Source: Yuukianura sp. NJ FZ-2021 | Lineage: Eukaryota | Length of the DNA stretch: 64,000 nt | NCBI GenBank assembly: GCA_046563655.1 | Contig: CM102286.1 | Span: forward strand, 14,446,001-14,510,000 | Direction of reading: 5' to 3' | Part shown: positions 34,361 to 55,573 of the stretch, piece after piece | Numbering within the stretch: the stretch's first letter is position 1 | Layout of the letters: every line of letters starts with the position of its first letter | Translations under genes and position numbers: made by a program | The notes under the pieces: model-generated | The model's database searches: none | What the model saw: only the letters and a program-made list of their open reading frames with translations | What the model was told of the DNA's origin: nothing

Positions 34361-36163
34361 TTAGAAAAAGTGACGCATGACAACAAGAAGTGGCACAAAA
34401 ATGAACAGATTTTGAATTCGAGCGAAACCGACTCCAGAATTCAAAGATGAATCGTCCATCGTTTCAAGGACTTGGATTCCTTTCCAAACTTCTACAATAT
34501 TAAAATTTCAAAAAAAAAGTAAAAAAAACTGAATTTCGAAAACGAATTTTGTAAAATTCATTTTTAAAATGATACGTTGTAATGTTACCTTCTGCTGTTG
34601 GAATGATTTGGTCTTCAGGCAAATCATACCCTAAAAGAAAATATGTTTCTTGTGTATTATTATATTAATTATATTATATGAATTAAATTATATTACTAGG
34701 GTCATACCATGGGAACCACCACATCTGAGTTCTACGGTTGCAGCGTACTTGGCTCCAAGGTTTTTGGCATAGTCGTCACTGGCACCTCCGACGCCATCTG
34801 AGAGTATAAAATGAATTTGAATATTATTATAAATAATTTATTTATAATATACTTACAAAGCAACTCTGCTGCTTGACCATAAGTATAATTCTGTCCATGA
34901 ACGCTATTGATTGCTTCAGTACTTAATCTGCCCCAACGCTCCTTAATTAACCAAAAAAATCAAAATAAGTTTTACAAAATGTTGAAATGAGAACATTTTC
35001 AGAAATTTTTTTGAAAATTTTGAAGTCATGAATTTACCAGCTCTTTGTACTCTTTGGGAAAGGCATTTGCAGTATACCCCCAAGACAATAGCCAAAGCTA
35101 AAATTTAAAAAGACAATTTTTTTTGGAAAATAAAATTTGGTTTGAAGGTCAAAGGTCAAATGACTTCTTTCTTACGGATCCACAAGCATGGAGAGTAATG
35201 TACGCGAAAATTCCGTTTTCATTGCCTATCAAGCTTTGCAATTGTGTGCTTAATGCTGCCGTTTCCGGTTCTGATAATGCAGTACTTCCTCCTGAAGTTT
35301 CAAAATTTTGAAAATTTAATTTTTTTTTGAAAATTTAGAAACATTTTGAACACAGGAAGTGCTTCCTAGTTTTGCTTATCCAAACTTACTGTAGTTGTTA
35401 GCACACGGTTCAGTCGAGGTATTCTCTCCACCTACAACACAAAAACATTCCGTTCAAATTCAAAATGCAAACCCGCGATTTTCAAATATTTAAAATTTTG
35501 AATCGATTTAAATTTTGGCGCCATACCGAAGAAGTAAGGGAAGTTTCTGTTTGGATCGACTCCAATGCATGCAGTATTGACCGTCATGCTTCGTGTTTTT
35601 CTCCATGATCTGTCTCCGTCGGGTGCATGTGTAAAGATGTATCCGTCTGGATTTAGAACCGGCACAATTCGAAAATCAAATTTACTCAAAATGGCCATGT
35701 AGTTGGCAGTGTTGAACGTCAGTTCATTGATGATGTACACAGCAACAGCACTCGAAATCCACTCATTTGCATGGATGTTGGCATCTATGTAGATGATCGG
35801 CTTTGTTTTCCCTTGTGCGTCCGGTCCAGTTGAAATTTCAACTTCAAAAATTTCATTGAGATCCGTACTTATTCCAATTTCGTTAACATAAGCTACTGCG
35901 TTTGTCTCCGCTTTGCCTACTTCCTCCACCAGCCACGTTTTGATCTTAAAAAATGACAAATATTTTGAAAGATTGAGAAAATATTTTAGAAAGTAAATTT
36001 TTATGAAAATCTTTTAGGTAAACACATGACCTTTGACCTTGATGAGGTCAAGACTTACATCTGCGAAGCTGTTGTACTTGGCCGTGTTGATTGCTGCTTT
36101 TGTGCTTTGCGTAATTGTGGAAAACGCAAAAGACAAAATCAAAAATGCACAAACTTTTTTCAT
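34361..36163 (-). CDS. M14A zinc carboxypeptidase, copy 1 (CPB-type Asp255; no pro-domain; hydrophobic C-terminal tail)
   Basis: Signal peptide MKKVCAFLILSFAFS; IHANEW, WRKTRS, GVDPNRNF, ITLHAC, YGVGGASDDY, TVELR; last exon ends ...ARIQNLFIFVPLLVVMRHFF*. Confidence 0.88.
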
Positions 36164-36893
36164 TTTGGATGAACAGAATCTAGACTGTTTTTTAACTTTT
36201 TAAAATGTGGGTTTGGTTGAAGTTAGTTAAAATTGAGTGGCATTGATTTTTAGCAAAATCAAAAAAATTCGCAAAAGTGGACAAAATTTATCTCGATTTG
36301 GCTACAATCAGTAGCAAAAGTAAAAAGTTTGGCTAATTTACGTTTTTTCAGAATCGGAATCCCTCTTCACTTTTTTGGATTGAAGTGTTTGCATTTTAAT
36401 TACACCGGGTTGCACAAGAAATCAAAATTCGGTCACATTTGGATAATAAATTTCATTTGGCTTAAAACTATAAGTGCTAGTTGATGTCATTTTGATTTGA
36501 GTTTTTAATAAATGGAGAACTACTTCAAAATGGTATGATAAAATCTGTTGCTGTATTTCCGTAATGGCGAATTTCACAAGAATTTTTTTCGAAAATCCTC
36601 AGGTGATACTGGTTTTTAGTTTTACGGCTGATGTTTTGCACAATGAAATGACAGAGCAATTTCATCATCAGTTCATCAGGGTTTCTCGCTTTCATGATAA
36701 CTTGAAACGCCAAACTGGAGAAAAAAAGTTCAATTTTACAAAACTTTGGGTTCTAAACGACAGTTTTATTGAAAACTTTGTTGATTCTTAATAACATGAA
36801 GTGAATTTTCGTAATTCGTAATTCGTATTTTCCAATTTCAACTTTTACTGTTATATTTATTTCAAAAACGTCTTTTGTTTAATTGTTATAGAA

Positions 36894-39052
36894 TTACATC
36901 AAGTATTTCGCTAACAAAAGTAGCTGAACACCAATCAGCCACTGCTTTGCAAAAATCGCTTCAACGCCTGACACTGAGTTCGGATCACGCTTGTAAACGT
37001 CGCCGATCACTTGAATTCCCTTCCACACTTCTACAGAGTAAATTTCAAAAACTCAAATTTATATTTTCAAAATTTTGAAAGTTGTGTCTCCTAAAATACC
37101 TTGAGAAGTTGGGAGAATTTGTTCAGGAGGCAAAAGAAAACCTGAAAATTTCGATTTCGGTTAACTTTTTGCAATTCCATTGAACAACTGAAACAAAAAT
37201 GAGAAATTACTAACCATAACGTCGGTTGTCCCTTAGCTCAAGCGTTGTTGAGTATTTGATGCCAATGGATTTGGCCCAATCGTCACTAGCACCTCCAACT
37301 CCATCTGAACATAACACATAATAAGTTATGTTAAGTTATGTAAGCTTACATTATGTAAGACTGTACTTACATAACAAGTCAGCTCCAGTTCCATAGGTGT
37401 AGTTCATTTGATGAACGCTGTAAATGGCCTCTGCACTTTCTTTGCCCCAGGCGTACTGAAAAAAGTACATTTTCGTGTGAATCAAAATTTTGAAAGTCAA
37501 CGGTCTGTTAAATCGTCGACTTTTGGTTTTGCTTTAAAAAGCAGAACTTACAATATCTTCGTAGTCCCTTGGAACAACGTTTGACGCAAATCCCCATGAA
37601 AGAAGCCACAACTAAATTTTAAAAACTTGTTTGAATTTGAAACTTTTCAAATTATATAAAGAAAAACTTTTTTTTGAAAATCCCGCACTTGTCCGTATGA
37701 ATGAATGGTGAAATAGGCGTAGATTCTGTTTGCTTCTCCGCCTTGAACTTTGGTAATATCCTCTGCCAACGCCTTCGTTTCTGGTTCGGACAGTGGCGCA
37801 GGTCCCTCTAAATTTCAAACAAATGAATTTCAAATTTCTAAATGTAAATGTAAATGTGAATTAAAAATATTTAAAATTTAGTAATTTAAAAAATAAACGT
37901 GAGTGTAAATGTAACTAAACACGTACTGTAAATGTCACTGGAAGGATCAGAGGAAGTTGATTCTCCGCCTGCGGATTCAGAAATTTTGAGAATGTTAGGA
38001 ACTAAAATTTTTTTTTCAAAATCAAAATGTGCTCGGAAAAGTTTCTACCAAAGAAAAATGGGAAATTTCTGTTGGCGTCAACTCCAATATGACCAGTATT
38101 GGCATCTACACTTCTCGTTTTCCTCCACATGCGATAATTCATGTCTTCTGGATCTACATGTGTAAATGCAAATCCATCTGGATTCAGAACAGGAACAATG
38201 TAGAAGTCAAACATATCCAGAAGCGAAGTGTACGCGGCAGTGTTGAGCGTAAGTTCATTGATGATGTAAGTGGCCACTGCACTCGTAATCCACTCCCGCG
38301 CATGGATATTGGCATCCATGTAGATCACTGGCTTGGCTCCGCCCCCAGACAAAGCTCCAGTCGACACAATCACTCGGTATAGTTGTCTACCCTCTGTACT
38401 TTTACCAATTGTATCAACTGTTGCAACGGAACTGGCATTTACATCATTCACCAACCAACTTTCAATCTGAAATTTTGAAATTTTGTTCAATTTCTCACTT
38501 TTTTTTGAAATTTTGGGTGAATTTGTGCTTACCTCCTCAAAAGTGTGGTAGGACGTCCATTCCACAGCTTTCGAACTCGCGGCGCGTTTTTGTGCATTTT
38601 CAGCAGCTTGCTGAGCCAGTAAGCTGAAAAGTTAAAAAGTTAGAAATTCTGATGAAGTTAAAGTTTGTTTTAATTTTGTCTTTTAAAAATTTACCTCTGA
38701 ACATCGGAAATTTTAGTTTTGAATTTCAGTTTGTGAGTCATGAGTAAGGATTTGAGTTGGTCGAATTTGTTAGAACGAACCATGATGTCTGCATCTCTGT
38801 TCAAAACTGCCGGTTTCCAAAAATCATAATCTTTTGTAGCTTCAATTTCCTTCAAAAACTGAACTTGATCTCTCGTTTTAGGTGTAACGCTAACTACTCG
38901 GTATCTACAAAATTTGAAATTAGAATTTTAAAATTTTAACCCAAAATTTTGATTTGACCCTTGCCCTTGCTTTACCTTTCACCCCCAGCTTCCTCCTTGG
39001 CGTTGACTACTACGCCTACACACAAAATGGAAAATAAAATAATTTTTATCAT
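36894..39052 (-). CDS. M14A zinc carboxypeptidase, copy 2 (CPB-type, with activation pro-peptide; hydrophobic C-terminal tail)
   Basis: Signal peptide MIKIILFSILCVGVVVNA; pro-peptide exon ~38905-38696 (DYDFWKP..DIMV..KISDVQ); IHAREW, WRKTRS, GVDANRNF, FTIHSYGQ, GGASDDWAK, TLELRD; ends ...WLIGVQLLLLAKYLM*. Confidence 0.9.
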
Positions 39053-43600: not shown

Positions 43601-46181
43601 ACAGCTTAAGCCTTTGTAGAGGTAATCAAGATTTATGAAAGTGAAAGTGTAACCTAAAACCAACGACGAAGAGAAAGTTCAAGTGAAGGAACGTGCAGAA
43701 AGGTGTTGTTGATTTATTGATTATCCAGCTCCTTAAGTTCGAATCCCACACCAGTCGTGTTTTTCTTACTTAACAAAGCCTATAACCTGAAATTCACAGT
43801 TCATTCCAACACTCAAGTGATGTTTTTATGTCAAGCATTATGTTATTTTATGCAAAACATCATGTATTTTATGTTATTTTATGTAAAACGAGTTTTTATG
43901 TTTTTATGGCTAGCTTACTTTAAGGTTAGGCTCTTCGTGTGTTGTTTAAGAAGACGGTTGAGTTTGAGTAGTACCGGTTTGGTGTTTGGACTTTGAGAGC
44001 GGAATGAGTCGGTTTCCGACACGACGAAACCGGCCGACGATGTTGTCAATAATCGGAACCTTGGATCCGAAGAAACTAATTCCGAAGACGGTCGTGATGA
44101 CCTGAAGATGTTCATTTTCCCAGCGAATGGTCATCTGCCGATCATCTTCTTCGTTCCAGTTGCAAATGCTGCCAGTATGTACTCCAGCACCCATCTTCGG
44201 AGTAATCACGCTGTGAACTAGTTTTCCAAAAAACAAGAGAAAATTTAGACAAATTTAGAAAGTTAAAAAAACACAGACTCTGGGAAGGAGTTTAGACACT
44301 GTTGTACCGAAAGTTTTTTTTTTTGGAAAGTGTTTTGTTTTTTGTTTAGAAAAGTGATTTTTTAGTTCTTTTTTTTTGAAATTGATACCAATGTATTTGA
44401 ACGGCTTTTGAAGGTCCATAAGAGAGGCCATTACTGTTTGTAGAATTGCGTTCGTGTCATCACGAACTGTGCGATCGTCGTACGGCTTCTCGCCTATCAC
44501 TTGATCAATTCCAGATTTTACAAGAGCCTCCACTTCAGGAGACAAGAAGATACACTTAAAAAATTAATTGCAATTAAACTTTAATTGACTTAGTGGGAAT
44601 TCAATTAGCTTAATTGAGAATTCAATTAATTGGGAATTCAATTTAAATTGAAGAATTCTTACGTCATTTTTGAACTCATCCTCCAGTTCATCAAAAGTTG
44701 CAACGATCGACATTTTTGCAATTGAATTGCAGCGGGGTTCCAATTGCTTACTCCAAAAACTTTTTTCGACAAAAGTTTACCCAAACTTTTCGAAAGGTTA
44801 AAAAAGAAGAAGTCGTTCCGGCCCTGATCCAACTTCTGATCAAAAGTGAAGGAGACAAGAGCGAAATTCGATTTTCAGAAAATTAGATGAAATTGGTTTG
44901 GAAATTGAAAATTTAGTTTAACTGCTTCTCTTTTTAGAAAGTTGTAGTACTACGATGCTGTTGTCCATGGCAACTCAAAATGAGAATTTTTTTTTCCGAA
45001 ATTGGATTTCAATTTTTAAATTTTTTTTCAGGAAAGACGTCGAATGCTGGAGACGTATCCAGGGTCGACATTTTTCGACGGAGATGCGGAGTACTGTAAA
45101 AAGCATTTAGCAAGTTACAACCATTTGATAGCCCATCAACATCCAATCAAAACTTCGCCTAGGAAAATCCCACCAACACCTCAACAATCCAAGTATACAA
45201 TTTTTATAACTTATTTTATTAATATTTTATATCATTTTAATATTTTATACATATTATTGAGTTTTATTTTTGAATTTCCCACAGATTCGATTCGGCTGAA
45301 AATGTTGCCGCTAGTCGTGAATCTCTCAGTGGCACTGCAGGGCCGTCTCGCAGAAAAGCCAGTTCCACTCCAAATTCTCCAGCGATTGGCGACAGCGGTG
45401 GGCCCATGTCACGGACAAGGTCAACGAGGTCATCCAGAACACATCCTATGAGCCGCTCAACTGGTGGGGCCACGCCACCAGAACCCACCCCACCGTGGGA
45501 ACGACACTACGGTTGCTGGAAGGAACATTTCAGGGCCAAGAATAGTGTCAGTGGCGGGAGTCCTTTGCATAGCAACTCCACACCTCCGAGTCCTGTCCAC
45601 TACAAGGTGACACGGACACACTCCAGAACGGACTCCATGACATCAGTGACCTCTGTGACCTCTCTCCCAGCTCACTTGACCTCTGCTGGCAACACTCCGC
45701 TTGTTGCTAGGCGACCATCGACCACTTCTGCAATTGAATCACAGTCTCCCGAGAGACGTCGACCCGGTAGAAGGCAGCTACCACAACCAAAACCAAGGTA
45801 ATTTAAAAAAAAAGTGAGGTAATTTTCAAAAAATAAATAGCGGGAACTCAGGTTTTCAAAATTTGAATTTTTAGATACCCGCCTTCTGCCAGGGGATCAC
45901 GTGAGCTCAATGTTGGTGAAGAGGAAGATGAGACGCTTGCAGTCGTTTTGGTGAGTCAGCCGGTCGTTCCAGCCCCAAATCCAAGCAGTTCTCATCCGAT
46001 TCAGCGCAATAAATGGCCGGTCGCTGTCGCTTCAGCGCTTCCTCCGACGATTCCCGAACTCCGACTTCGGGGTCATCAAGTGGACAAAAGTCGGAGTCTA
46101 ACGGCCAGAGCCAGTCTGGGCATTACTCGGTGGGTAATGAAGAGAAGTGGTGCCTTTCGATATGCCATGGACAATTCATAA
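40655..46181 (+). CDS. Atypical dual-specificity phosphatase, DUSP15/DUSP22-like, with a long disordered C-terminus
   Basis: Exons: MNK (40655-40663); 41164-41280 VLGGLFLGNYRDSKD..ITHILSIHD; 43101-43228 YLCIMASD..NLSQYF..VLIHC; 43300-43474 LAGMSRS..NPNSGFMKQL (catalytic HCLAGMSRS); then exons from 45032 to the stop at 46181. The true N-terminus may extend upstream. Confidence 0.88.
41842..42293. repeat. Array of ~12 TAGTTACTCCC motifs with variable spacers, in a DUSP intron
   Basis: The motif (G)TAGTTACTCCC(TCC) recurs every ~25-55 bp; two spacers (42034-42110) are a near-exact 38-bp duplication. Confidence 0.85.
43946..44713 (-). CDS. Dynein light chain Tctex-type (DYNLT1/3-like), nested antisense in a DUSP intron
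   Basis: Three exons (44713-44663, ~44554-44388, ~44218-43946): MSIVATFDELEDEFKND/CIFLSPEVEALVKSGIDQVIGEKPY..LQKPFKYI/VHSVITPKMGAGVHTGSICNWNEEDD..IRWENEHLQVITTVFG. KPFKYIV, GAG-H and W..D..RWEN..VFG are Tctex-1 family signatures. Confidence 0.88.
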
Positions 46182-46733: not shown

Positions 46734-47241
46734 ACAATCAAGGTAAATAGAATACAATAAATTACAAATTATTTCCGCCTCGCTATTACTTTGCTACACT
46801 ATGCTTCACTTTAAAAAAAAAAGTTTTTGAAAAAACGACTTTCAAAAAAAAAGTTATTGACAAAATGCTTATTTTTTTTTTTACATATTTTATTGGAACA
46901 TTTCATATTTTTCAGTTTATGTTTTAACTTGTGTGTATTACAACTTTGAACTTTTTAAGAATAGATGTTTAGAAATTATTTAATCATGTCTAAAAATTAT
47001 TCATTTTTTGAAAAAACAAGCAACAAAAAATGAACATGGAAACTTAAAAACGTTTTGTTCTGCATAAACCTAAATCGATCCAGTTAACGTATACCGTGGA
47101 GAAATTAATTAGGAATTAAATTATTTAACTTAATAAATAATTTAAATTAGGTTTAACGTCAACTTAACTTAAATTAACTTCACCAGCTGAGGTCACTAAA
47201 CTGAATTAGACATTGAAAGAACGATTAGTCACTCTGTGTTC

Positions 47242-47783
47242 TTATTTAGATCCTCCGTTCTTGACCTTCCCCCCGTCACCAGCTTGACCTTCGTCTTCCT
47301 CTGACACCTCATCATCATCTTCTTCCTCCTCGTCACTGATATCTTCGTTCTCTTCTTCGTCAACATCATCATCATCGTCATCGTCTGATACGTCAATGAC
47401 TTCCGCTGGAACCTTGTTCTTTGGATCCTTCCTGGCCAAAACGGCTGGAGCTACGTCTTCATCATCCGACAAGTCTTCTTCGTCATCATCGTCTTCCACG
47501 TCATCGTCACTCCCAGACTCTTCGTGATCGTGTTTGGACATTCTGGGTTTCTTGGCACCTTAATTTCACAATGACTTCAGTTAACTAACTGCAACACTTA
47601 CTAACTCAACTGACAAGTATCGAAGTACATCGTAACTAGCTTACCATTCATAGTCCTAGTGGCTAGTTGCGGCTGAGGTACTCCACCAGTTGACTTTCGG
47701 GCAGTCACTTTGGCCACTGGAGCTGGACCACGATTAGCCTTGTTCGTACTGACGGGAACTTCACCTTCATCTGAATCTGACAT
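47242..47783 (-). CDS. Uncharacterised 151-aa acidic protein with a histone H3 N-tail-like segment and no histone fold
   Basis: Exons 47783-47645 and 47558-47242, joined through a GT-AG intron, give a continuous frame: [60 protein letters not shown]..GGSK*. Confidence 0.8.
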
Positions 47784-48201
47784 TGTTCTGAACGTTTTTA
47801 AAACAAGAGTTAGCAGCGACTCCGGATCCGGAATTCCTTGTTCTAAAAAATTAAACAAGACGGCGTCACTTTTACAACCAGAAATTCGTAACCTCCCGCA
47901 CACGCGGTTTACATAAAAAAAAGGACTCGGCTCGGCGTCTTCAGGTTCACGCCGAAACCAATGCAAGTGGAACTTACCTCTTTAGACTAATCGATTAACC
48001 GATGATTAATTGAGGTTATTCGGCTCTTTGATTCTGTTCAACTTATTTAGAACACACAAGTAAAGATGACTGAAGGTATTTACGAATACGACGGAGATGG
48101 AAGAACAAGCAAGGGAAAGATTAATTTTTCAAAGTTCCTTTGTGTTATTGGGAAAAAAGCATAGTAGGAAAAGCAAGGTTATTTGCTAGTCTTACAACAA
48201 A

Positions 48202-48643
48202 CAGGCTGTGCCACATGGCAAAATTTGGACACTTCGAGTTTTATATTACGTCAAGCAACAATAATTATTTGTGTCATAATGTCCATAACTGACCCGCGAT
48301 GAATTCGACGGTGGCTAAAGGTAGCCAAGAACATTGATGTAAATTCTTTTATTAATTACTAGAATTTCTACACCTCTTTCTATACCTTTCAACCGTCTCA
48401 ATAGCACTTACTCCAACTTTTAGGATTCACCAAAAACATGAATCTAAAAGTTTCCATTCTATTACATTTAGCAATTTAGCACCAAAATTTGAGTAAAAGT
48501 TTCCTTTCTTTTACACTTATCGTTAGTACTAAAAACATGGGGCTAATAGTTTCCTTCCCGCTGAATTTTATACCAAAAACATGAGTTTGTTTTTATATTA
48601 TGCTGAAACGCAAAGTCCAAATTTGGCCATGTGTCACAGCCTG
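48202..48643. mobile_element. MITE with ~29-bp TIRs (Tc1/mariner-like)
   Basis: CAGGCTGTGCCACATGGCAAAATTTGGAC versus the reverse complement of GTCCAAATTTGGCCATGTGTCACAGCCTG: two mismatches. Right flank TA, left flank AA. Confidence 0.8.
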
Positions 48644-49044: not shown

Positions 49045-50948
49045 CTAATTTCTGGATTCTAGGTGGAGCCACATTCCATTCAGTGGTTTCAGAATTCCTT
49101 TCGTACCGAATTTTGGTGGGATTTCTGTTTTCTTTCCCGGGGAAATTTTGAAATTCAAAATCAAGTGGGCCACGGCAGCTTTTCCTTCCATCAGAGCAAA
49201 GCGATTGGCAATGCATGCTCTTGGTCCAAGGCCAAATGGCAAGTATGCATATGGATGTCGACTGGCTTTTGCTTCTGCGCTGAATCGCTCGGGGTCAAAT
49301 TTTTGTGGTTCTGGATAAATTTCGGGGTCATGGTGAATTGCATAAGTTGGAACAATGATGTGCGTCTCTTTTTGAATAACGTATTTGTCATTTGGAACTT
49401 GGTAGTCCTTGTTGCACTTTCTTTCTGACCGGACTCCAGCCGGGTATTTTCTCAAAGTTTCTGAAAAAGAAACCCGAAATTTTAAGATTTTTTGCATTAG
49501 AGGGAAAAAACAAGGTTCCTATAGCACCGAAATAGCTATCTTTAACAGGTTAGACAATCAGTCCAATTTTCCAAAAATGTAAAATCGGAGCTAAAATCGG
49601 CAAGGACACAGAGCTGCCGTGATGTCGTTTCATGTTTTCAATTTTTGGGGGAAAATAATAATACTTATTGCCTAACCTGTTAAAGAAAAATTAGTTTCTT
49701 GTTTACGAACCTTGGAAAAAACAGAAATTTTTTGTTGATTTTTAAAGTTAAAAGTCAATGACCTTTGACCTCACCTGAAATAACCATGTCCAAATATTCA
49801 ACTTTGTTGACATTATCGTAGCTCAACTCTTCTTTGTTTCCATTCGTAGCCAATCGGAGAGCGTCGTAAAGTTTTTCTTGAATTTGCGGCGCAATTGCTA
49901 ATTCGTAACAGGCCCACATCAGGAGTGACTCTGTCGTGTCAAATCCAGCGACAAAGAATAAATTGCACTGTGCAATTAACAAATCATCGTCCAATTTAAC
50001 TTTGTTAACTTTCTTCAAATCCAATTGAGCATCAACGTCATACTGATCTTGCGTCTCCGCAACTTCTGCGCCTGTCCCATTCTCTCCTCCCAGAGATTGA
50101 TCTTGTGCTTCCAACATTAGTTGCAAAAAATCGTTCCTTTTCTCACCAAGTTCCTTACGACGTCGAATGCTATCTCGTACCACCGATTCTAAAAAGTTGA
50201 TTGCTTCTTCATTAAAAAGTGGCAATTTCCATTTTTTGGCAAGTTTCGGAAACAAAATCATGAACATAAATTTGAACATGACGAATTTTCCAAAATTATC
50301 TTGCAATCCCCGTGCGTTGACAGCAAAAGCAGAGTTGGCGTCCTTGAAATTTTGACTGTCGACGCCAAATGCTGCCGATGCAATGACATCCATTGTGTAA
50401 CGACCACAAACTCCGCGCAGCTCAACTTCGCCACCGTTTTGGCCAATTTCTTTGTTCAAAAAGTTGACCATCTTCTCCCCACTTTCGTTGAAAACGCCAA
50501 ACATTCTTTTGATTTTGCTGGTGGTGAAGGTGGGACTCATGGTGGCTCGCAAGTCTTTCCAATCTTGACCCACCATGTTGAACAACATTTTGTCAAATTT
50601 GACATCCGAAAACTCAATTCCTCTTCGGTTGACGAAATGGTCAAAATCTTTGACCAAAATGTTTTTGATCAAGTCGGGGTCAAGGATGAAGAGCATGGGA
50701 TGTCTGAAGAGTGTTGTGCCGCCAAATTTCAAACCGGGTTGTTTTTTCATTTCTTTGTAAATTGCTAAATCGTTGGCTTGAAATGGAATTCGAAACAGAA
50801 AGCGATCTGGAATGCTAAAAAGTGAGGCAGCGCTGACATAGAAAACGCCGCGTTTTGTCCAGTAGTCTTGATTTCCATCGGCGTATTTGTAGACTAACCA
50901 AAGTACTGTACAAACCAATACTACTGTTGCTACTAAGGCGAACAGCAT
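49045..50948 (-). CDS. Cytochrome P450, CYP3 clan (CYP9/CYP6-like), two exons
   Basis: N-terminal membrane anchor, WKDLR C-helix, FFVAGFDTT I-helix, ETLRKYP K-helix, FDPERF and heme motif PFGLGPRACIA; single intron ~49774-49463. Confidence 0.95.
49511..49714. mobile_element. Probable MITE in the CYP intron (CAAGGTTC termini, sub-terminal inverted repeats)
   Basis: CAAGGTTC/GAACCTTG termini; TCTTTAACAGGTTAGACAAT versus ATTGCCTAACCTGTTAAAGA inverted pair; GAAAAAA on both flanks (possible 7-bp TSD). Confidence 0.6.
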
Positions 50949-53498
50949 TTTGAAAATTTCAGAAATTATATTTCAAAATTTCAAAATTTCAAAATTTGTT
51001 CAAATGAACTTTACTACTTTGAAGTTTTATTGGTTGTCTATACGTCTGTCCGCAGAGCTGTCCAGAGTAAGTCTGTCCAGAAAAAGTTGAACACACTGCC
51101 AGATATAGGAATTTTACTCTGCAAAAAAAATCATCTTCACGTGTTTGTTTTCACTTTGTGTAAAAAGTGAATCAGATGACGCAAGTTGAAGTGGCAAAAA
51201 GCGTCAAATTTAGATAAAATGACCTTGAGGCGGTCAATTTTAACTTTTCAAAACGTTCCAGAGAAGTAGAATCAAGTTGACCTTCATTTTTCATACTTAG
51301 CACAAAAAACAATTTTGTTAGTGGCAATCTTTGTAATCTTTTTGCCTCATACTGGACAGAGGGCGGAGGTAATTGAAAATTATTGTATGCCTGGCAATTG
51401 TTATGCAGAACATAACTATTGCTACAAAAAATTAAAATGTGGAGAAAGAGCACTTGACCATGAATAGCCTTCAACACAATTCTGCACACAAAAAAAGGTA
51501 GAAAAAAAAATATTTGCAAATTGTTTGCCAAAATACTTGACAATGTTGAATCTTTTTCTCCACGTGATTTTGACGCCGCATAGTAGTATCTGATAATAAT
51601 AAACAATTTGACAATTGAAGCAATTGAAACTGTCACATACTGTTTAATAACACTTGAGAATCAAATATGTTTTTAACACTGACCTTTGACCCGGACTTGG
51701 AAATGTCCAACCTTGGCATGCGTACTACAACAGTATTACATTGATTTTTTGATTTATCTCAATTTTATCATCCACATATACACCTGAAACTCTAAAATTT
51801 GGCATTTTTTTTTAAATTTTCGAAAATAGTTTTCGATTTCATCTTCAACGGGACTCATTCGAGTACAAAACTTTCACTGAAATTGGAAATATAAAAAGTT
51901 GTAAAGGTTTTGGCCAAAAGTTGCCTTATGCTAGAGCGAATCTCTTCACTTTTTAGTTTTTGATTTAAAAGATTAAACTTTTTCGTCTGCTCGTGCTCTT
52001 CGTTAGCTACAAAAATTTTACGAAGTTACAAGTGTGGAAAATTGGCAGCAAATTGTGTGGTTACGAACATTTGCTTTCATTTTACGTCATTTTGTACAAC
52101 TCCTACACTAATAAAAACATAAGTTTCTCCATCTGAACTTAATGATGTAAACTCAAAACCGTCACTTTCACGTGCGAAATTCAAATAGTAAAGGTCAAAG
52201 GTCAACTTTTACGCAAAAGTGATGGCACTGAACTCTGTTTTTAATCAACTATGTAAAAAAAAAGTGTTCTTACTTTTTTTTCGATTTTGTTCCCTTTTTC
52301 GACAATCATCTTTTTTTCTTGTTTGGCACAACTAAACTTTCCAGACACAAAAAAAATTCCGGAAAATTTCTACTTTTTACACATATAATTTCCAATAAAA
52401 TTTTGTAATTAAAAAAAACAATGAAATTTGCAATAATGTTAAACTGGTTTAAGTAGGTTTTCCTGAAACCGCCTTCTCCTGCTCCACCTCGACAACAAAA
52501 CAATTGTTGCATTTTTTTCAAAAGACGGAAACTAATGCATCAGTGACCAGTCAGTTACAAACCAAAATACAAACAAAATCCAACTGTAGCTCAAAAATCC
52601 GAAAACAAAGTTCAAAAGTCTACTTTGTGCCAAAATTCTACAGAGTTGTACAATAATTATTGAGTCACTTTGAGCTTATGAGCAATTAAAAGTTTAAAAG
52701 ACTTTATAATGACAGGAAGCTAAAGTTCGTGTGTCATCTTTTGATGTTCAATGGTTATGAAACTGACAACAACTCAAACACTATGCCCCATTTTAAGCAA
52801 CAACTTAATTCCGTTTTGCAGTTTTGTTGAAATTGAAATTTTGAATTTTGTCATAAAATGGGAATAGGGCTGTTCATCCTTATTCTCACAAACAACAGCT
52901 AAAGAGATGCTCGAAACCACAATAAATTTGAGATTTAGGCAAGTTATAAAAAAAAGTTAGTACAGGAAAATTTACTTTCATATAAACATGTGAAACACAA
53001 AGATTTCATAAAAATGGATACTAAAAGGCGAAACAAAGGGGGAATTGAAACATATTAGTCCAACGCCCTTACGAACTCATTTCGTCTGAAAAGATAAACT
53101 TTGAGTAATTACTTTAAATAATCAGGTTTTAGTCTCTACTTAGTCAAGCATCGGTTCAACGCGTCTCACTACAACTCGTTTTCTAACTCAATTAACAATT
53201 GAACTTCACTTACGAACGACTTACCATTGCAACTGTAACCTCAAAATACACGAAAAGTATTTCAACCAAAAACTACATTTCAGAAATGCTTCAAAATTGA
53301 CGTTTTATCTGTGAGGAACCAGGAAAAACTAGTTGAAACCTGAAAAAATTCTCGAAAAAGCATTGTTTTTTGAAAAAGTGAAAATGGTTTTGTTGTACCT
53401 TACGGTTGATTTTGAGTGTTGATAGAAGAAAGTCGTAAATCCTGTTTGATGAGATCCTTCCGACGGCGGTTTTATTTGAATTTTGAAATTCGGCAGGC

Positions 53499-55573
53499 AT
53501 GAACCGCCTTTTTCTGCTTGTCCTTGCCGTTCTGGCTGAAATCGTGAGTTCCAAAATTTTCAGTGGCGGTGTAAAACATTTTGAATATGGTGCACAGTGG
53601 AAACAGAGTCACGTGGGATGGAGTGAAAGTGGTCCATATGCCCAAGGCTACGACTACACTTCGTATATTTATGGTCCAGGATGCAGGTCTGCAGAGCGTA
53701 TGCGGTATCCAAGGACACACGCTGAAGTGGTTGCCATAGTGAAAGAAGCGCTGGAGAGAAAAGTGACGGTGAAAGCAGTTGGAGCAAGACATTCAGCCAC
53801 GGACATTATTTGTACTGACGGAATTCCAGTGGATATGCATGGAATCCATGAAATGGCGCTGGATAGCGACAATGTCGTGACGACCGGGGCTGGAGCCACT
53901 GTTGGACAACTGACGGAGTACCTTGCGTCAAAAGGCAGAGGATTCCCGATCATTCCTGCGTTTCAAAATATAACTGGTAACGAATATTTAAAATTTTCAA
54001 AATTCTTCAAAAATGTGAAAAAAAAAGTTCGAAATTTTACAAATTCTCAGAATTCGCAAGGTTACTGACCTTGCACTTCTGAAATGTTGAAGTTTCCAAC
54101 TAGTCAAACAAGTTTCGAGTGCTGGACAGCAACTGGAACGTCCAGTTTTACAGGAATCCTGAAATTGCACAGCTTTGGTTCCGTTATACACAGATTTTTA
54201 AAATTGTTATTGAAATGTTTGAATTTTGCCTCTTTTTTTGAAAAGTGGGCGGAGCCATTGGAACAGGAGCACACGGAAGCTCGCTTCGATACACCGCGTC
54301 GTTGTCCGACCAGACCTTGGAGGTTCTTATTGTCGACGGACTCGGCAACATTCGGCGAATCACGTCCGACCAAGACTTGATGTCCTTCAGAGTCCATCTT
54401 GGTCTCCTTGGCATCATTCTGCAAGTCAAGTTCAGAACAATCCCACTTTTTAAATTTCGTGCTCACAATTACGTCATGGAAGACTCCGTACTTCGGGACA
54501 GAGCTCTCTACATGGCCGAATCCACTGACGAAATCCTCTACCATTGGTATCCCTCCTTTGAAAAAGTGGTAGTAGCCAACTGGACACGAATTGAAGACAT
54601 CAATGTTCCAGGAAACGCTCATACCAATGCCCTCATCCCACCGACATCAAGATCCTTCAACTTCTTGGGCAAAAGGACCCTTGAAACAGCCCAGGCCCTT
54701 AAGTCCCTCCCTTTTATGAACCTCCTCCAGTACATCAGCTTCTTAGCACTATTCAAAACACTGCCAGATATCCAGCCGATTTATACCGAAGATGATCTCC
54801 TTGTAAAGAATCCGGCGATTGGACTTTATCACCGTATGAGTTCAGTCAGCTGTCGTGACGATGGGTGGGTCCAGTGTCCATGGTCACATGGTCAGGATGG
54901 AGCCAGAGCTCTAGATAACGAAATGGCAATTGAACTCAAAGATCTTCCAAGATTTGTTAAAAGAGTTAAAGATATTTTACAAAGATGTCCAGCAGTGTTT
55001 CCATTTGAGGGTATCTTGATCCGGTTTTCTGGAGCTTCAACTAGTCACTTATCACTCAGCCGTGGACGAAAGACGTGTCATGTTGAATTTTATCCGTTGT
55101 ATCGAGAACGGAGATATGAAGATCCCATGGTAGGATTGGCAGCATATCAAGCCATAATGCAGTCCCTCCTGAACGAGTTTTCTGGAAGGTCACATTGGGG
55201 TAAATCCGGAGCTTACTATCACTCAAGGGCCCTTCTGGAACGTAAAGTGGATCCAGAGGCCCTTCAAGGGTTCTCGGAAACAATGAAACAGTATGACCCC
55301 AATGGAGTATTTCTGAATGACTTTGGACGAAGACTGTTGGGGCAGAGTGAGAAGATGAACTGGGATCCACGGGTGGTGCACTGTGCTCTGGACGATCATT
55401 GCATTTGTTCCAAAGATGACGACTGTGCTAGGGGTCAACAATGTTCCAGAATCGAAGGATATCCAAACTACCCGGTATGTTTAGACAGACGACCAATCAA
55501 AAGAAATCGTCCATTGTTCAATTACGCACGGTACACCATCTACCCTAAAAGAATAAAATATACCAATTACTAA
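53499..55573 (+). CDS. Secreted FAD-linked L-gulonolactone oxidase-like protein (FAD_binding_4 + ALO), plant GULLO-type
   Basis: Signal peptide; VKAVGARHS (flavinylation His); ITVGGAIGTGAHGSSL across one intron (~53977-54245); LGLLGIILQVKF; C-terminal HWGK; Cys-rich tail CALDDHCICSKDDDCARGQQC. Confidence 0.85.

Follow-up and report, generated by a model that had tools for sequence, protein, structure and literature searches.

A small acidic protein of Yuukianura sp. with an internal copy of the histone H3 tail: a candidate H3K9-type histone mimic

Introduction

Histone mimicry is known mainly from four-residue motifs in large proteins, or as a trick of viruses. Within the H3 tail, HP1 chromodomains contact about residues Q5-S10, Aurora B phosphorylates S10 in the context R-K-S, and many PHD fingers need the free A1 of H3.

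The closest described cellular cases are the automethylation site (ARKT) of G9a/GLP, ATF7IP/mAM and LIG1 K126, where a disordered region of a non-histone protein contains an internal A-R-K-S/T. According to the published accounts, G9a/GLP methylate the lysine of such mimics, and the methylated form is recognised by HP1, MPP8 or the tandem Tudor domain of UHRF1 (PMC2175347, PMC7585203, PMC6172828). According to the sections of PMC2175347 that concern these peptides, G9a methylates non-histone ARKT/ARKS peptides with H3-like kinetics, the methylated ARKT of G9a itself binds HP1, and the G9a, EuHMT and mAM peptides have the four-residue core ARK[S/T] alone in common with H3, their carriers being large multidomain proteins. 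The recognition pattern of EHMT is given as [GCSAKLN]-R-K-[TGQSVMALNKER] in the corresponding part of PMC10611923, and a passage of PMC7585203 estimates H3 to be in about 1000-fold molar excess over the mimic LIG1 and over LIG1's reader.

Stand-alone cellular mimics of the H3 tail that compete with H3 at a methyltransferase are represented by EZHIP and NOP16; according to the literature, both imitate the region around K27 and have PRC2 as their target, and the EZHIP sequence is K27M-like. Among viruses, influenza NS1 (ARSK) and SARS-CoV-2 ORF8 (ARKS) have been described as non-histone proteins with a short H3-like motif.

Here we analyse a small gene of Yuukianura sp. NJ FZ-2021 whose 151-residue product carries a 21-residue segment resembling the H3 tail around K9. 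"The window" denotes the whole stretch of DNA that was analysed (64,000 nt of contig CM102286.1).

Gene structure and genomic context

An earlier note, made from the letters of the window, had described a spliced gene with a coding intron at 47644-47559; its exons, this intron and every other element that it described were found at the positions given. The gene model is as follows.

47978..48071, minus strand: predicted non-coding 5' leader exon, the 5' end of which is a guess (TCAGTC initiator-like motif) and the 3' end of which is the donor AAAGAG/GTAAGT (slash, splice point)
47843..47977, minus strand: predicted 5'-UTR intron, 135 nt, GT..TTTTTTAG
47645..47842, minus strand: exon with the start codon (ATG 47783-47781, context AACAATG); its coding part, 47783-47645, encodes residues 1-46 (P0001, 46 aa)
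47559..47644, minus strand: coding-region intron, 86 nt, phase 1, GTAAGC...TTAAG
47242..47558, minus strand: last coding exon, residues 47-151 and the stop codon TAA (47244-47242); translated from the split first codon it gives P0002 (105 aa)
46889..46894, minus strand: likely poly(A) signal AATAAA, about 350 nt past the stop codon, with a second candidate (ATTAAA) at 46984

The coding sequence (CDS) comprises 456 nt, i.e., 151 codons plus TAA, and its frame is preserved over the phase-1 junction, both ends of the coding intron being of the GT-AG type (donor G/GTAAGC, acceptor TTAAG/GT). The leader intron has a strong donor (exon end at 47978) and an acceptor in which TTTTTTAG is followed by AAC (exon start at 47842), and the TCAGTC of the leader exon resembles what we take to be the initiator consensus. 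Without leader splicing the frame 5' of the ATG stays open as far as 47981; with the leader splice, an in-frame TAA stands two codons ahead of the donor, and neither leader piece contains an ATG. The open reading frame (ORF) thus cannot extend in the 5' direction, and the ATG at 47783 is the first ATG of the predicted mRNA.

The neighbouring genes bracket the locus on both sides.

Last ORF ending at 49045, minus strand: cytochrome P450, upstream neighbour, reaching position 454 of the 462-position Pfam p450 profile in a closed ORF
45274-46181, plus strand: convergent long open frames rich in S/T/P/R, without a Pfam family, downstream neighbour
43946-44563, minus strand: Tctex-1 gene, farther downstream

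The locus is a compact three-exon minus-strand gene of about 1.2 kb (approximately 48.07-46.89 kb), separate from its neighbours. That it is a separate small gene, as had been proposed, agrees with the P450 gene upstream, the convergent plus-strand ORF downstream and the TAA that blocks 5' extension. We also considered whether it might be a fragment of a larger gene and ruled this out from the in-frame TAA, the closed P450 ORF and the lack of a histone fold in the window; the earlier note had itself raised the case of a larger protein with exons encoding a histone fold, and the 64 kb contain no such exon.

Three other regions of the window were recorded in passing. The convergent frames at 45274-46181 (plus strand) may be another gene for a disordered protein; 35432-38631 (minus strand) holds a tandem pair of M14 zinc carboxypeptidase exons or genes (Pfam E-values 1e-35 and 5e-41); and 53487-55573 (plus strand) encodes FAD_binding_4 and ALO/GULLO domains, as in a gene of the L-gulonolactone or D-arabinonolactone oxidase type.

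The copy of the H3 tail

The segments that resemble histone H3 lie on either side of the coding intron.

47652..47714, minus strand: H3-tail copy, residues 24-44 (21 residues), aligned to H3 residues 3-24
47542..47556, minus strand: AKKPR, residues 48-52, collinear in the alignment with H3 GVKKP

The 19-residue segment to which the earlier note had drawn attention was located at 47711-47655 in exon 1. When P0001 was compared with the PDB by phmmer, 106 distinct sequences were found at E<=10, and all of the 60 matches listed are histone H3 or H3 peptides. The best match (E 0.065, 17.2 bits) pairs query residues 24-44 with H3 residues 3-24, with one gap at the position of K14, and 14 of the 21 positions are identical; this alignment reproduced the 14 identities and the exact TARKSTGG reported before. 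TARKSTGG, the equivalent of H3 T6-G13, is a run of eight contiguous residues. The equivalents of K4, R8, K9, S10, T11, P16 and Q19-T22 are kept, while that of K14 is absent, K18 is replaced by P and K23 by R, so that the pattern of kept and replaced lysines is the one previously claimed. The copy is internal, beginning at residue 24, and the equivalents of A1-R2-T3 are missing, so there is no N-terminal tail beginning at A1. Because this end and the equivalents of K14, K18 and K23 are lacking, the copy is not a full tail.

The E-value of 0.065, taken alone, is marginal, the finding was picked from a very large scan, and the segment might therefore be a convergent or chance resemblance, with neither descent from H3 nor any H3-linked function. 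The resemblance was set against shuffled sequences by the BLOSUM62 local score to the H3-type ORF of metagenome locus L010, which is an H3 variant and not canonical H3. For exon 1 the observed score of 57 was reached by none of 20000 shuffles, although one came as close as 56; for the spliced protein the observed score was 67, again reached by none of 20000 shuffles, the highest of which scored 53. The best alignment of the spliced protein is collinear across the splice junction into GAKKP, which bears out the likeness to H3 noted earlier for GAKKPR; its two blocks correspond to H3 4-23 and then 33-38, with a gap of seven residues at the K27 region. The collinearity of two blocks is better explained by descent from H3 than by convergence, and the restriction of the listed PDB matches to H3 likewise speaks against chance, an explanation that we regard as improbable. 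An exact run of eight residues, a K at the spacing of K4, P16, and QLAT at the right distance do not plausibly come together by chance, and the copy probably descended from a fragment of an H3 gene, as far as sequence can tell.

A28-R29-K30-S31 matches the EHMT recognition pattern given above. The second ARK of the protein (residues 88-90) is followed by D and does not fit that pattern; the LARKD that the earlier note had compared with the K27 context is no more than this second ARK. AKKPR resembles a nuclear localisation signal, K-K-x-R being what we take to be the consensus, and might act as one.

The acidic tail and the absence of a fold

Downstream of the H3-like segments the protein is dominated by acidic residues.

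47290..47523, minus strand: acidic tract, residues 59-136, with S/T-x-x-D/E sites at 61, 63, 77, 104, 121 and 132
47365..47403, minus strand: SIM-like segment, residues 99-111, with the pattern [VIL][VIL]x[VIL]

Counted directly, the whole protein has 52 D/E among its 151 residues, a pI of 4.05 and eight S/T-x-x-D/E sites; exon 2, which begins GAKKPRM and then passes into the D/E tract, contributes 48 D/E in 105 residues. The single site of the pattern [VIL][VIL]x[VIL] in the protein is VIDV (100-103), followed by S104 and by D at 105-111. We take the consensus of a SUMO-interacting motif (SIM) to be a hydrophobic core flanked by Ser and acidic residues, and VIDV has this arrangement. The D/E tract, the CK2-type Ser sites and the SIM-like motif of the original description are thus all present.

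At E<=10, Pfam returned no family for either exon, and no PDB sequence matched P0002 at E<=0.01. A histone-fold exon was sought in the 64-kb window by tblastn with three H3-type ORFs (L003, L009, L010), and none was found: the tail alone was matched (47711-47676), and the other rows were noise, with E-values of at least 0.07 and several containing stop codons. AlphaFold2, run on exon 2 as a single sequence (a weak test), gave a mean pLDDT of 61, a pTM of 0.13 and no secondary structure, which agrees with the composition of the exon. The 151-residue protein is predicted to be disordered and without a fold, and the earlier claim that it has no histone fold is upheld by the Pfam null, by the tail-only match in the window and by the AlphaFold2 model of exon 2.

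Such a composition raises the question of whether the function resides in the tail. The H3-derived segment could be a relic, the protein working through its acidic, SIM-like part (e.g., as an acidic nuclear chaperone or a SUMO-binding protein) and the head serving as a basic patch, import signal or charge counterweight without any use of the H3K9/S10 machinery. The D/E tract makes up most of the protein, with its CK2-type sites and its VIDV-S-D7 element; the equivalents of K14, K18 and K23 and the free N-terminus are gone, and AKKPR fits a K-K-x-R import signal. Moreover, the passage of PMC7585203 cited above implies that bulk H3 would out-compete a decoy. Against this reading, an exact run of eight residues with QLAT at the right spacing exceeds what a basic patch needs, and both substitutions observed within the motif are synonymous (see below), though these are two events only. 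We consider a relic unlikely on balance, though a serious contender.

Substitution pattern and coding strand

The sequences used for comparison are contigs of unknown kind ("DNA?") from three runs (X1, X2 and X5) out of five that stem from two studies; among them, X2 represents a second haplotype and X5 another organism (organism B), with about 2-4% divergence at the DNA level. One X2 contig (7063 nt) spans the whole locus (46800-48300) and differs from the window by 33 letters, of which 30 are listed. The listed substitutions fall in the CDS (11), in the 86-nt intron (7) and in the flanks (12). Ten of the 11 listed CDS substitutions are synonymous third-position changes, the remaining one being E68D, and the one listed coding indel removes or adds 3 nt at codon 149. 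The probability of at least 10 synonymous changes among 11 is 1.4e-6 when a synonymous fraction of 0.21 is expected (all changes) and 1.3e-4 when it is 0.33 (transitions only). In organism B we found T13P, G7V and K95R, and E68D is common to X2 and X5; the X5 contig over most of exon 2 has a depth below 5 and 3 of its 12 differences are listed, and the X5 contig over exon 1, the intron and the leader has a one-letter gap the position of which cannot be placed. Across X2 and X5 together there are nine variable sites in the 86-nt intron versus four in the 139 coding nt of exon 1.

Within the 21 H3-like codons, X2 and X5 show two substitutions, both synonymous (A28 and T27), whereas the two substitutions of X5 in codons 1-23 both change residues; two synonymous versus two non-synonymous events are a description and not statistics. 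As a separate observation, the UTR and flanking regions are oddly conserved in X2 relative to silent sites (12 listed differences in about 920 nt versus 10 synonymous ones in the 456-nt CDS).

The frame looks constrained, judging from these substitutions, as it would under purifying selection. The gene might nonetheless be a non-working one, either a young ORF that is not expressed or a chimeric duplicate in decay, and no homologue of it was found in the protein libraries that were searched. The prevalence of synonymous changes among the listed coding substitutions and the in-frame indel do not fit decay, nor does an intron that diverges much faster than the exons, and the splice sites, the start context and the poly(A) signal are intact; we give this explanation little credence.

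Two antisense frames complicate the assignment of the constraint to a strand.

47288-47527, plus strand: antisense Ser-rich ORF, sharing third-codon positions with the minus-strand frame
47677-47916, plus strand: second antisense ORF, sharing third-codon positions with the minus-strand gene

None of the nine exon-2 variants inside the Ser-rich ORF changes a residue of the plus frame, not even the two that alter the minus-strand protein, and the constrained frame might thus be this antisense ORF, with the minus-strand reading as a by-product. Because the third positions of both frames coincide, the substitution pattern shows constraint but not strand. The plus-strand ORFs do not begin with a start codon, belong to no Pfam family and have no gene model, whereas the minus strand has an ATG, frame-keeping GT-AG junctions, a stop codon and the match to H3.

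A further contig bears on the strand. An 824-nt contig (X1) joins position 47980 to 47826 with 12 letters between them, which corresponds to the exact loss of the GT-AG leader intron together with two substitutions and one fewer TCCGGA unit. On the window this contig covers 47769-48045. The match takes in five codons of the CDS and breaks off after 47769, and the remaining 687 nt of the contig align nowhere in 46800-48300. Possible explanations are a retrocopy, a paralogue with a common leader, a chimera, or a transcript from a mixed run. Since the intron is exactly removed in it, the X1 contig supports the leader intron and hence the minus strand. The complete gene model, the H3 match and the X1 contig, set against plus-strand ORFs that have neither start, family nor model, lead us to assign the gene to the minus strand; that the antisense Ser-rich ORF is a real gene is unlikely, and that it accounts for the constraint while the minus-strand protein is a by-product seems to us very improbable indeed.

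Searches for relatives

In word-indexed searches, P0001 gave 12 candidates among longer proteins, none at E<=10, and P0002 gave 1623 candidates among proteins of near length, none at E<=1. A HMMER search of P0001 against 1.84 billion representatives returned one match (E 1.4e-4), a 553-aa protein with repeated NTAPVAK..TSGT units, which we rejected as a chance score summed over repeats. Searches of the open-access literature yielded no stand-alone protein combining an H3 tail with an acidic part. The earlier remark that the protein belongs to no recognised family is in line with the Pfam, PDB (P0002) and protein-library searches, all of which ended without an accepted relative.

As a control, an exon of the neighbouring P450 gene was searched. 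Among named relatives the springtails Allacma fusca, Orchesella and Folsomia came first, at about 42% identity or less, and the best relative overall is a metagenome protein at 68% identity. These matches point to a springtail, or something closely related, as the most likely source of the window. Missing orthologues are weak evidence, because the nearest named springtail proteomes are only about 42% identical even for the P450, a distance over which a short and disordered protein could not be followed. It is possible that the gene is lineage-restricted.

A degenerate DNA pattern for the H3-like motif, in which a residue other than K is followed by P, matched 22 loci in metagenome contigs, none of them orthologous, and had no match in viral contigs. 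By tblastn against the 22 loci, the matches of P0001 were confined to the motif and P0002 matched none.

Several of these metagenome loci carry H3-tail copies of their own. Four related contigs (L002, L006, L008 and L016, at about positions 1000-1035 of each) encode MAQTKTT.KRKASP... and an H3-like motif, with no histone fold in the ORF; the ORF of L002 equals that of L006, which leaves three distinct sequences, and in all three the 20 residues around the motif are identical while the flanks differ. No Pfam family was found in the L002 and L008 ORFs, the two that were scanned. At L015:863-2035:+ an H3-type tail is joined to a PhyH (phytanoyl-CoA dioxygenase) domain (Pfam E 8.9e-9), which has a 2-oxoglutarate oxygenase fold, in a contig of 71% G+C. 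In the open frame of 552 aa at L013:1-1656:- the start of the H3 tail occurs three times as TKQTA[RV]K, and Pfam gave no family for this frame; L017 has three H3-tail-like matches on one strand, about 900 nt apart. At L019:365-826:- a K/A/P-rich stretch is followed by the H3-like motif and then by an acidic DEFDEEDDEEYE stretch, a layout loosely like that of the window protein, with no similarity detected beyond the motif.

Like the window protein, L002/L006/L008/L016, L013, L015 and L019 have an internal or N-terminal H3-tail motif with a non-lysine next to it and no histone fold in the ORF; unlike it, they belong to different lineages and have different partners, and nothing beyond the motif is similar. 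Being unrelated, these metagenome fusions suggest that capture of the H3 tail may have been repeated in eukaryotes.

Proposed function

The reading that we favour, tentatively and at somewhat less than an even chance, is that the protein is an H3-derived histone mimic acting as a soluble pseudo-substrate or methyl-dependent adaptor for the enzymes and readers of H3K9 and S10. The exposed T-A-R-K-S-T-G-G would be bound by those enzymes and readers for which this internal segment suffices: K30 would be methylated by H3K9 methyltransferases of the G9a/SETDB1/Su(var)3-9 types, the methylated K30 would then be bound by HP1-type chromodomains, and S31 might be phosphorylated by kinases of the Aurora-B type. 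The protein would thus behave as a soluble pseudo-substrate or methyl-dependent adaptor and not as chromatin. Because the free A1, K14, K18 and K23 are lacking, the K9/S10 subset alone would be engaged, and readers that require a free A1 N-terminus or K14/K18/K23 would not be expected to bind. The acidic tail and the SIM-like motif may offer an additional point of contact with chromatin proteins that are basic or SUMOylated; alternatively, the tail may be an autoinhibitor that folds back on the basic head and is tunable by phosphorylation. An adaptor role, or a role off bulk chromatin, would be likelier than titration, because H3 is estimated at about 1000-fold excess over the mimic LIG1 and its reader.

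A more specific version, which is speculative and to which we assign a low probability, is that the gene is a tail-only H3 paralogue, which arose from the 5' coding part of an H3 gene by fusion with a disordered tail that is acidic and binds SUMO, and that its product is a regulatable competitor or methyl-dependent adaptor for H3K9 methylation, HP1 and S10 phosphorylation, i.e., a K9-side counterpart of EZHIP.

The gene itself, in one poorly sampled lineage, is well-supported, whereas its function as a mimic is putative. What appears to be new is the length of the copy and the fact that an H3-tail copy is the only recognisable content of a tiny protein. To our knowledge, a host gene with a 21-residue copy of H3 K4-K23 as its sole recognisable content would be the most complete natural tail mimic known. 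If the reading is true, the gene would be a natural experiment on which readers and writers need just the linear K9/S10 segment, and it would illustrate how a gene can arise when a histone tail is captured. Should the protein prove to be methylated and read, it would show that animals can control the H3K9 system through a competitor in solution, much as EZHIP serves mammals for K27.

Comparison with known systems

With histone H3 the window protein has the K4-K23 segment, and possibly G33-P38, in common; it differs from H3 in that the tail is internal, beginning at residue 24, the K27 region is missing and there is no histone fold, and the lack of this fold excludes it from the histone H3 family. 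Compared with the folded acidic histone chaperones (nucleoplasmin, NAP/SET and ASF1), it likewise lacks the folded core, as indicated by the Pfam, PDB and AlphaFold2 nulls.

Like the viral mimics, NS1 and ORF8, it has an H3-like motif outside a histone; unlike them, it is encoded by a host gene with introns, and viral contigs did not match the H3-motif pattern. With EZHIP and NOP16 it has in common a short H3-like peptide in a stand-alone protein; in those lineage-restricted cellular proteins this peptide is the active part. It differs from both in that the K9 region is copied, and from EZHIP in that the target lysine is kept (K30) and there is no K-to-M replacement; because the lysine is kept, a role as substrate or adaptor would be expected, and not that of an inhibitor of the K-to-M type.

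The closest likeness is to the automethylation site of G9a/GLP, ATF7IP/mAM and LIG1 K126, which likewise present A-R-K-S/T internally in a disordered stretch of a non-histone protein, as the pertinent source passages have it. Whereas the G9a, EuHMT and mAM peptides have the four-residue core in common with H3, the alignment of the window protein gives 14 of 21 positions matching H3, eight of them contiguous, in a carrier of 151 residues that appears to have no other domain. By its sequence, then, it is a candidate H3K9-type histone mimic.
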